From NCBI GenBank assembly GCA_964384105.1, contig CAYLJV010000001.1, positions 348,900 through 412,899 of the forward strand: a DNA stretch of 64,000 nt, read 5' to 3'. The notes under the pieces are model-generated. The model had not been told where the DNA came from, searched no databases, and saw only the letters and a program-made list of their open reading frames with translations. The DNA comes from Candidatus Hadarchaeota archaeon (lineage in GTDB: Archaea > Hadarchaeota > Hadarchaeia > Hadarchaeales > JAGGTB01). Below, piece after piece: positions 47,977 through 49,928 of the stretch; position 1 is the stretch's first letter, and each line of letters opens with the position of its first letter. A program made the position numbers and the translations under genes.

Positions 47977-48525
47977 CTATTCAAGATAAATTAATTTAGA
48001 AAATATGCTTTTTGAGTTCTCTCTAATTCTTTGCAGATCCTCTTCACTTGGGAGTCCTCTGATATCCCCCATTCTTCCTTTAGTACTAAGTTCTTTGGAC
48101 TCGTGATGTTCGCTTAGAATATACCATTTGCTAAGTACGGAAAATCCTAAGTGTTCGAAGAATTGAGCAATGTATTTTACTGCGGGAATTGCTTCATCTA
48201 TTCCAGTGTGTGGTCCAGAATATGTACAGAAAATTAGAACATTTTTTCCGGGTATTTTAGGAGCTTTTGGTTTTATTCTCCCCTCTTTTCTGTATTCTTT
48301 AAACTTGGTTCTTAGGAAGGAGTCTAAGGGTTCTGCCGGATGCCAGTTAATTGAGGGTGAGCCTATGCATATTAGATCAAAATCAAAAAAATCAATCTGA
48401 TTAGCCTTATCCGCCTTCTTAAGTAAGACATCTGCTCCTGCATCTTCCAGACCCATCTTTACAGCATAAGCTACTTTCTCTGTATTTCCGGTGCTAGACC
48501 AGTAGATAATTGCTACTTTATTCAT
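47977..48525 (-). CDS. Flavodoxin-family protein
   Basis: YWSSTGNTEKVA FMN loop, IGSP, and FCTYSG. Confidence 0.88.
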   Translation of the reverse strand: MNKVAIIYWSSTGNTEKVAYAVKMGLEDAGADVLLKKADKANQIDFFDFDLICIGSPSINWHPAEPLDSFLRTKFKEYRKEGRIKPKAPKIPGKNVLIFCTYSGPHTGIDEAIPAVKYIAQFFEHLGFSVLSKWYILSEHHESKELSTKGRMGDIRGLPSEEDLQRIRENSKSIFSKLIYLE

Positions 48526-48710
48526 TTAGCATTCATTCCTTTACTTTCAAAATAAAGGTCATAAATTCAATTGGTTTATCCTGTCAATAAATAAAAACTT
48601 CTGCATAAAACATCAATATTTTCTAGGGTATTAGCCATACAAATAAGTACTAAATTTGTGTGATAAAAACCAGAATAGATAGATCACCTTTTGAAATTAA
48701 AACATCGAAC

Positions 48711-48930
48711 ATGAAGGGGCCGGGAACGTTACCTCTTTCGCGGACAGGTTGTTGCCTATACTTTAAAAAACCGGCTTCCAGCCGATACAGAGCCTGTCGG
48801 AGCGCCCGACCCCCGTGCCCCCGTAGCTGTGCAAACAAGGAGGTGAGAAACTCCTGCGGGAACACTTAATCCGCTTGTGTTGTTGAACCAATTCAATGGT
48901 AGAGAATGCAACACGTGGCGGAAGCGTGAT
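48711..48930. ncRNA. Candidate structured RNA element of unknown class
   Basis: About 54% GC (119/220 counted) within AT-rich intergenic DNA, with many stems including overlapping alternatives; no family recognised. Confidence 0.4.
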
Positions 48931-48950
48931 AATTGAAGTAAAATTTAGGT

Positions 48951-48966
48951 CTTTTCAATTGAAAAG
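48951..48966. promoter_or_regulatory. Perfect 16-bp palindrome CTTTTCAATTGAAAAG, possible operator
   Basis: Loop-less inverted repeat between the structured element and the tenA promoter. Confidence 0.35.
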
Positions 48967-49086
48967 TTCTCGAGCTTCATCCCCCAACAGATTCACATAT
49001 AATTTTTTTCGACGGTCGTATAAAAATTTTTTTGTTTTAAGACTCGTAGAAGTTTTTCTTTTTAATATCTAATAATAAGGGTTATT

Positions 49087-49112
49087 AAACGAAAAGTTTA
49101 TTAACCACCGCT
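49087..49112 (+). promoter_or_regulatory. BRE/TATA promoter, class A (tenA)
   Basis: AAACGAAAAGTTTATTAACCACCGCT; 20/22 identical to 55469-55490. Confidence 0.7.
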
Positions 49113-49127
49113 TCAAAATTTACTACC

Positions 49128-49928
49128 GTGATGTCTTTGAGTTCTAAAAATACGAGAGAAGTATTGGTAGATGAATGGGAAAATAAATCTACTTTTGTTG
49201 ATCAATTGAGGGAGAAATACGATCATCTTTTCCAAAAAATTGCTGAACATCCATTTCTCCTAGAAATCGAGGAGGGAAAACTGCCGTTAGAGAAATTTTT
49301 ATTTTATGCTAAGCAAAATGAATATTACATATCTGAACTAAGATCAGCTGCTTCAGCTGGAGCTGCTCGGGCAACGACTGATTCTGAAAGAAGGATAATG
49401 ATGATGATTGTAAGCATGTTTCCACTGGAGTTATCTGAGTATTGTTTTGGAAAACTTTCTGTGGCAGCAGGTGTGCCGGATGAGGAGATTAAAGCCATAC
49501 TTGAAGATCCAGATTTCCCACTTCCAGCCACACGGGCATATACCGATTTTATGTACAAGGAGTTTGCGACCAAACCCGCGGGAGTAGCGACAGCGTCTTT
49601 CATAACTTGCCCCTGGACTTACAGCTCAGTGGATATTGGAGGTCTTTCGTGTGGTAAAACTTTTGCAAAAGCTCTGCATGACCATTATGGAGTCGACAAA
49701 AAGATCACTGAGGAATATATAGAACATTATGAAACAGACGAAGATTTTGCTATTGGTATAAAGGCTTTGAAAGATGCGGTGAATAAAGATGCGGAAGAGG
49801 GAAATGATAAAATGAGGAATATCCTAGAGTCTAATTTTAAAAGGGATGTAGAATACGAGTATATGTTTTGGGAGATGGCATACAAGCATAATCCTGGTAA
49901 GGAAAGGGAATTTGGTTCTTATTTCTAA
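49128..49928 (+). CDS. tenA: TenA-family protein (thiaminase II / aminopyrimidine aminohydrolase-like)
   Basis: HPFL, FLFYAKQNEYY, catalytic-type CPWTY, and EYMFWEMAY. Confidence 0.8.
   Translation: MMSLSSKNTREVLVDEWENKSTFVDQLREKYDHLFQKIAEHPFLLEIEEGKLPLEKFLFYAKQNEYYISELRSAASAGAARATTDSERRIMMMIVSMFPLELSEYCFGKLSVAAGVPDEEIKAILEDPDFPLPATRAYTDFMYKEFATKPAGVATASFITCPWTYSSVDIGGLSCGKTFAKALHDHYGVDKKITEEYIEHYETDEDFAIGIKALKDAVNKDAEEGNDKMRNILESNFKRDVEYEYMFWEMAYKHNPGKEREFGSYF

Follow-up and report, generated by a model that had tools for sequence, protein, structure and literature searches.

Families of sibling trans-acting small RNAs (sRNAs) are represented by Qrr1-5 of Vibrio, LhrC1-5 of Listeria and the streptococcal csRNAs. 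The Hgc RNAs of Methanocaldococcus and Pyrococcus (Rfam HgcC, HgcE, HgcF and HgcG) are GC islands in AT-rich archaeal genomes, some of them multicopy, and the REP/BIME and ERIC sequences are bacterial intercistronic palindromic repeats that fold in mRNA. To our knowledge, almost no regulatory or scaffold RNAs have been described in archaea beyond a few model species, and a literature search found no described regulatory or scaffold RNA of Hadarchaeota. Here we analyze a GC-rich intergenic element in a 64,000-nucleotide stretch of DNA (hereafter the window; assembly GCA_964384105.1, contig CAYLJV010000001.1, positions 348,900 to 412,899) from a 1.6-Mb Hadarchaeota metagenome-assembled genome (MAG) of 12 contigs and ~90% completeness. 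A preliminary description of the window placed the element at 48711-48930, between a flavodoxin gene and tenA, and offered three readings: a riboswitch- or attenuator-like leader, an sRNA, or an orphan mobile-element RNA of the HEARO/omega type. The sRNA gene comes nearest to our results, whereas the other two readings are not supported. In our analysis, the interval ~48660-48996 is, with a probability of about 60%, one of seven paralogous structured non-coding RNA genes of ~330 nt, most probably transcribed from the minus strand as a stand-alone, trans-acting RNA. The best reading of these genes is an undescribed, lineage-restricted RNA family of a familiar general kind, namely orphan multicopy structured non-coding RNA genes.

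A BLAST search of the element against its own genome recovers four further copies, and nhmmer together with a covariance model (R1) raises the total to seven, with R1 E-values of 1e-44 to 1e-61. The copies, of which the window contains c2, share 70-81% identity and lie on contigs C1, C3 and C4; every one is intergenic, and no flanking protein gene is common to them. All-against-all BLAST of 4-kb regions, with which the flank alignments agree, extends the shared unit ~45 nt and ~70 nt past the GC-rich core. The interval first proposed is a real core, but the conserved unit is larger, and the whole proposed RNA gene spans 48660-48996 of the minus strand, with approximate ends placed from the BLAST unit extents, the flank alignments and R1. 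The core (48711-48930) has a GC content of 54.1%, as against 26.5% and 27.9% in its flanks (48526-48710 and 48931-49127) and 37.7% in the whole window, in keeping with the GC-rich (~54%) island in AT-rich intergenic DNA that was originally noticed. All of the stems listed in the preliminary description can be located in the sequence. On the minus strand, the unit is organized in the order 5' G-rich strand, leader, domain 1 (helix P-a), domain 2 (helix P-b), domain 3 (helices P-c, P-d and P-e) and 3' tail.

Taken by itself, the window copy folds no better than dinucleotide shuffles on either strand (z -1.0 to -1.4), so structure beyond chance is established solely by comparison of the seven paralogs and one relative, a domain 3 found in a genome of the same genus (G002). 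In the alignment of domain 3 from the seven copies and this relative (A3), RNAalifold and pair counts identify 27 pairs, with 95.8% of cells paired and double-sided changes in 12 of the 27 pairs. Of 500 column shuffles, none does as well, and sliding the partners by 1-3 columns leaves 37-51% of cells paired. P-a and P-b likewise show compensatory changes. The family exists, and its domains P-a, P-b and P-c/P-d/P-e are maintained by compensatory substitutions; the expectation that the element is a structured RNA whose stems covary among homologs is thus borne out by seven paralogs and one relative.

The outer parts of the unit are also linked to each other. The duplex between a copy's own 5' strand and its own domain 2 has a mean energy of -18.8 kcal/mol, compared with -15.7 for cross-copy combinations (permutation p = 0.0006), and own pairs on the plus strand reach a mean of only -14.9. 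The same own-versus-cross-copy comparison gives no signal for nine other segment pairs (leader-tail, leader-bulge, leader-D1 loop, D1 loop-tail, D1 loop-linker, linker-tail, leader-linker, D1 loop-bulge and 5' strand-tail). The 5' G-rich strand co-evolves with the domain 2 pyrimidine strand and, because own pairs outscore cross pairs, the ~330-nt unit probably contains a long-range helix or pseudoknot. The pyrimidine strand includes nine bases, UCACCUCCU, that exactly match the 16S rRNA 3' end of the same genome; this end reads GATCACCTCCT and lies upstream of tRNA-Ala in the rRNA operon. However, the exact 9-mer occurs only in c2 and c3, two of the seven copies, and is therefore no conserved feature of the family. 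The idea that it acts as an anti-Shine-Dalgarno (anti-SD) "seed" is weakened both by this distribution and by the co-variation of the strand with the RNA's own 5' end; the resemblance is probably incidental, and a role of the strand in forming a helix is more likely than one as an mRNA-binding seed.

The substitution pattern favors the minus-strand reading, to which the preliminary description already inclined. In helices with a Watson-Crick majority, the deviant cells comprise 23 G.U and four A.C on the minus strand, so that on the plus strand pair-breaking A.C would outnumber tolerated G.U 23 to 4. Where columns are unpaired, C>U and G>A are about equally frequent (0.76 and 0.94 per column), so mutation itself favors neither strand; among paired columns, G>A drops to 0.26 while C>U remains at 0.66. 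This suppression of G>A is the pattern expected from selected pairing in a minus-sense RNA. Folding energies point the same way, with a mean minimum free energy of -84.3 on the minus strand versus -76.3 on the plus strand, mean z of -2.74 versus -1.48 and alifold energies of -48.4 versus -41.0; the minus strand folds better in six of the seven copies. The domain 3 of G002 is likewise on the coding strand of pstA/pstB, which corresponds to the minus-sense orientation. We consider it probable that the RNA is made from the minus strand of the window, and transcription of both strands is possible.

Several observations weigh against this reading. The evidence base consists of seven paralogs and one partial relative, and the paralogs share descent, with the result that the counted changes are not all independent; the trans-acting, protein-binding role is one that we infer from the anatomy of the RNA. 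The minus-sense body carries 12.3 runs of four or more T per kb, with runs of five or more T in four of the seven copies, compared with 3.7 per kb for the plus sense, while the 23S, 16S, signal recognition particle (SRP) and RNase P RNAs have 0-1 runs of four or more T per kb and no run of five or more. These four RNAs are also A>U and G>C, as is the plus-sense reading. A motif resembling a B recognition element (BRE) and TATA box, CCGAAAAG-CATTTTAATT, similar to the tRNA promoters of the same genome, stands 5' of most copies in the plus sense, at a constant distance; it lies on the plus strand of the 3' tail segment, is aimed into the element, and is weak in c2 but clear in c0, c1, c3 and c5. 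The same seven-copy family could on these grounds produce its functional RNA from the plus strand, starting ~25 nt after the BRE/TATA-like motif (near 48700), passing through domains 3, 2 and 1 and ending at a T-run at ~49003-49009, and T5-T7 runs do follow the C-rich strand in c1, c2 and c6. A crude promoter position weight matrix built from 41 tRNA upstream regions of the genome scores neither flank above the AT-rich background, so promoter-likeness does not decide the strand; the terminator calls, too, are ambiguous at both flanks. Set against the excess of pair-breaking A.C, the absence of bias in unpaired columns, the poorer folding of six copies, the weaker pairing of the 5' strand with domain 2 and the orientation of the G002 copy relative to the pst operon, a functional plus-strand transcript appears doubtful, although it deserves to be taken seriously.

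In the minus-strand reading, the anatomy of c2 is as follows. A TATA-like box, UUUUUAUAC, preceded by an A-rich stretch (49018-49026, minus strand), is a possible promoter and would set the start near 48994-48996; a similar block, AAAAATTTTTAAC, is present on the matching side of c1 and c3. The 5' G-rich strand, CUGUUGGGGGAUGAAGC, occupies 48974-48990 and is the proposed partner of the domain 2 pyrimidine strand in the long-range helix or pseudoknot. In the leader, the perfect palindrome CUUUUCAAUUGAAAAG (48951-48966) forms a hairpin in the window copy only and is unconserved in the alignment. Domain 1 (48871-48921) consists of helix P-a, in which CCGCCACGUGUUG pairs with CAACACAAGCGG, and an apical hairpin at 48886-48899, as seen in the alignment and in the centroid fold; its outer CCGCC/GGCGG is kept in all seven copies, with U.G wobbles and one compensatory pair. 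Domain 2 (48815-48865) is closed by helix P-b, GUGUUCCCG with CGGGGGCAC, for which copies c0, c4 and c6 provide compensatory changes, and encloses a hairpin, AGGAG-UUUCUCAC-CUCCU (inner hairpin 48838-48855), and the pyrimidine strand UUUCUCACCUCCUUGUUUGCACAG (48827-48850). Two stems of the preliminary description are recognizable here: the long minus-strand stem at 48871-48921 is P-a, and the 9-bp stem at 48865-57/48823-15 around the AGGAG/CUCCU hairpin is P-b.

Domain 3 (48716-48814, minus strand; alignment A3) is the most conserved module and the sole part kept in G002. Its helices are P-c (48805-48814/48716-48724), P-d (48793-48804/48740-48748) and the P-e hairpin (48771-48785). A chain of mutually exclusive stems, as initially suggested for this region, can be drawn, but the paralog comparison favors a nesting of P-c, P-d and P-e. 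An unpaired bulge of 14-15 nt located 3' in the domain, GAAAGAGGUAACGUU (48725-48739; consensus GAAAGGGUAACAUY), is invariant in most columns across the seven copies and has a close variant in G002; the C-GAAA-G motif formerly taken for a tetraloop hairpin is present, but sits inside this invariant bulge. We regard the bulge as a candidate protein-binding or tertiary-contact site. The terminator scan also finds the previously noted hairpin AUCGGCU-GGA-AGCCGGU with its U-run (48786-48765), that is, P-e followed by a terminator-like U6 run (48765-48786, minus strand); however, alignment A3 shows the U-run in the window copy alone, c0 and c4 being without a U-run there and c1, c3 and c5 without the insert. 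In c2, the U6 run could truncate the transcript. The unit ends in the 3' tail (48660-48715), whose U5 run (48665-48669) is a candidate archaeal termination signal.

From this anatomy, a model of function can be proposed. Each copy would be transcribed separately from the AT-rich TATA-like box upstream of its G-rich strand (49018-49026 in c2), and the transcript would end at the U-run after domain 3 (48665-48669 in c2). The RNA would act in trans and not on its neighbors, most likely as a protein-binding or regulatory scaffold, with the domain-3 bulge as its conserved contact surface and the variable peripheral helices distinguishing the paralogs. Since the bulge is nearly invariant and the domain survives alone in G002, domain 3 is presumably the conserved functional core.

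The family has a narrow distribution. R1 and a domain-3 model (R2) match only the source genome and G002 among 66 genomes of the phylum, and a scan of 185,579 species genomes with a degenerate pattern matches no contig other than that of G002. The same scan gives one chance match in GC-rich coding DNA and nothing else in metagenome contigs, and nothing in viral contigs; BLAST finds no match in phage and plasmid collections. PstB is 66% identical between the two genomes, and the best flavodoxin homolog anywhere is 72% identical and lies on an 878-bp contig. The genus is thus deep, and the lack of matches in other genomes may stem from divergence in addition to loss; synteny via flavodoxin is unusable because the best match in same-genus genomes is only 41% identical. 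Rfam 15, the search of which had been suggested as a check, contains no matching model: nothing was found at the element with the gathering threshold on the whole window, with E<=10 on the window copy or with E<=5 on all seven loci, both strands included. SRP RNA (C4:84332-84642) and RNase P RNA (C3:148469-148758) are detected with strong scores at other sites than the element copies, and the element matches neither model; a housekeeping RNA of either kind is therefore rejected.

In G002, domain 3 stands alone between pstA and pstB in the sense direction (contig CAYNPN010000102.1, locus L015, 2416-2591), and the pstA-pstB spacer measures 174 nt, as against 33 nt in the source genome. The domain is followed by CUCACCUCCU, which is complementary to AGGAGGUG immediately upstream of pstB, and for this reason could be a portable sensing or docking module. 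Extended to the whole family, this idea would make the element a new class of large pseudoknotted archaeal RNA, in which domain 3 and its GAAAGGGUAAC bulge serve as an autonomous sensor or protein-docking module, employed in trans by the seven siblings and in cis in the pst (phosphate transport) operon of G002, where the following anti-SD strand pairs with the sequence upstream of pstB; that is, a riboswitch-like or ribonucleoprotein regulatory module. We regard this proposal as speculative and rather unlikely. A tyrosine integrase gene is located 1.4 kb from the G002 spacer.

The genomic surroundings of the copies bear on a possible origin from mobile DNA. Copies c4, c5 and c6 adjoin tRNA genes; at C4 ~84.3-85.15 kb (locus L013), the SRP RNA gene (190 bits) and tRNA-Ser are followed by c4 on the opposite strand, converging on them. 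Copies c3 and c0 lie at C3 ~111.7-123.5 kb, together with tRNA-Leu, a TBP gene, two paralogous TFB genes, a winged helix-turn-helix gene and a tyrosine integrase gene, and this region may be an integrated element with extra basal transcription factors. A mobile-element-derived RNA or repeat would be either an orphan omega/HEARO-like guide scaffold acting in trans or a palindromic repeat of the type of ERIC, REP or miniature inverted-repeat transposable elements (MITEs) that would spread and influence mRNA stability. Such an origin would fit the multicopy and patchy occurrence, the position of five copies beside tRNA genes or in the integrase-containing region, and domain 3 itself, which is a ~100-nt imperfect palindrome and appears inserted in the G002 operon. 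However, no IscB, TnpB, IS110 or reverse transcriptase gene lies beside any copy, and no IscB/TnpB-type open reading frame (ORF) is found within 3 kb of any; PF07282 matches once above the cut-off (C3:6807-7001, in a 393-aa frame) and once below (C6), each time far away from all copies. HEARO and other Rfam families give no match, and neither do the phage, plasmid and viral-contig collections; conserved terminal inverted repeats or target duplications were not found. Despite their age (20-30% divergence), the copies have preserved their pairing through compensatory substitutions, and this suggests that the RNA itself has a function. Collectively, these data make a mobile origin of the RNA improbable.

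Specific forms of this idea were rejected separately. A MITE is contradicted by flanks that show only AT-rich chance inverted repeats, by unit ends that are not shared as inverted repeats and by the 70-81% identity of the copies. A retroelement (a retron or group II intron fragment) is likewise rejected, PF00078 having no match in the ~90% complete genome.

Some further features of these regions were observed in passing. At C3 ~111.7-123.5 kb, a small ORF at tRNA-Leu has an N-terminus resembling that of the integrase. Two copies of a 60-nt direct repeat (87% identity) lie 5.3 kb apart at C3:117029-117088 and C3:122333-122392, the second copy just before the integrase gene; each copy contains about two small hairpins with differing loops, and the repeats could be att sites or another small RNA. 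A third TFB paralog (C1:143839-144771) has an N-terminus very similar to that of the TFB at C3:118572-119507, which makes at least three TFB genes in the genome, besides one or more for TBP. Elsewhere in the window, at 2252-2348, a tRNA gene of 96-97 nt (Rfam, 55 bits), for which ARAGORN gives the four-base anticodon 'atag' and type '???', probably carries an intron.

In the window, the minus-strand flavodoxin gene (47977-48525; Pfam PF00258 and ORF list) lies downstream of the element, 140 nt past the U5 run (48665-48669), and the TenA-family gene (49128-49928, plus strand; Pfam PF03070 and ORF list) is divergent from the proposed RNA. This position, upstream of and co-oriented with flavodoxin, and the hairpin with U6 at 48786-48765 underlie the reading of the element as a cis-acting leader, a riboswitch or attenuator that would control flavodoxin through alternative hairpins and a P-e/U-run terminator; the location of the G002 domain 3 within an mRNA, ahead of a strand complementary to AGGAGGUG before pstB, can be cited for it as well. 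The comparison of copies argues otherwise. A co-oriented gene within 200 nt is present only for c1 and c2; for c0 and c3 the nearest is 0.8-1.5 kb away, and c4, c5 and c6 have no co-oriented downstream gene. The downstream genes differ by copy: flavodoxin; a 129-aa ORF and then a 490-aa ORF, which we tentatively read from its sequence as a phosphoenolpyruvate (PEP) carboxylase; or TFB genes at 0.8-1.5 kb. No common pathway connects flavodoxin, the 129-aa and 490-aa ORFs, TFB, tRNA and SRP RNA genes, and pstB in G002. The U6 run is specific to c2, the covarying helices are nested and not alternative, flavodoxin is set off from the element by a U5 run and 140 nt of AT-rich DNA, and no Rfam riboswitch family matches. 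Neither flavodoxin nor tenA is controlled by the element as a riboswitch or attenuator, and a cis-acting leader of any such design is very unlikely.

Two further readings concern molecules other than a non-coding RNA. The selected structure might form when the minus strand is exposed as single-stranded DNA and serve as a site for recombination or transposition, like integron attC or the ends of IS200/IS605. Because G.T pairs are tolerated in folded single-stranded DNA too, the strand asymmetry alone is no proof of RNA, and T-runs would be irrelevant to DNA; however, a ~330-nt fold of three domains with a long-range helix far exceeds known folded single-stranded DNA sites, no HUH/TnpA-type gene or integron lies beside the copies, and the G002 copy is inside a transcribed operon, all of which renders this reading highly improbable. 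A small basic protein is scarcely credible: plus-sense ORFs of 36-37 aa (MLPFRGQV...) in c1, c3 and c5 are similar in length and share an (A/U)UG start and UGA stop, with a longer ORF in c0, yet c2, c4 and c6 lack the ORF, frame-shifting indels between copies leave the mid-peptide non-homologous, and the first eight codons are free of synonymous changes in every copy, indicating constraint on nucleotides rather than protein.

A family of non-coding RNA genes read from the minus strand thus accounts best for the locus: a covariation-supported RNA of ~330 nt, with seven siblings in one genome, absent from Rfam, and with one domain that recurs within an operon of a related species. The practical weight of the family, which is known from a single MAG and one partial relative, is limited. 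If transcribed as proposed, it would constitute a new RNA family suited to covariance models, its conserved 14-15-nt bulge could be used as bait for a protein partner, and it would provide a worked case of strand assignment from G.U versus A.C asymmetry, checked on unpaired columns and made independently of expression data.

How the element relates to described systems can now be specified. With REP/BIME and ERIC sequences it shares the arrangement seen in G002, where domain 3 alone, a ~100-nt imperfect palindrome, lies in the sense direction between two genes of an operon. In the source genome, by contrast, domain 3 never occurs alone but invariably forms the 3' portion of a larger unit that carries its own flanking signals. 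Copies are few, and their helices covary instead of being nearly identical. Like the HEARO/omega RNAs of IscB and TnpB (IS200/IS605 family), which measure 200-300 nt and are sometimes orphan, the element is large, multicopy and putatively pseudoknotted. It differs from them in having no match to the Rfam HEARO model, no IscB/TnpB gene beside the seven copies and no variable guide segment evident at either end, and the clear TnpB-type match in the genome is in turn without an element copy. The resemblance to the Hgc RNAs lies in being a structured orphan RNA from an archaeal GC-rich island in AT-rich intergenic DNA; size, architecture and lineage (Hadarchaeota) differ, and their Rfam models do not match at E<=5.

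The families of Qrr1-5, LhrC1-5 and csRNAs offer the parallel in genomic organization. As in these families, several diverged paralogs occur in one genome, each in its own intergenic region and with a putative promoter and a U-run; conserved blocks are shared between the paralogs, and a C/U-rich strand resembles an anti-Shine-Dalgarno sequence. Unlike in these sRNAs, the anti-SD-like 9-mer of the element is exact in two of the seven copies and is paired internally. What the Hadarchaeota genome presents is a set of seven paralogous intergenic loci with conserved sequence and covarying helices, encoding an archaeal RNA that, at ~330 nt, would be three to four times longer than the bacterial sRNAs and combines three covarying domains with a probable long-range helix.

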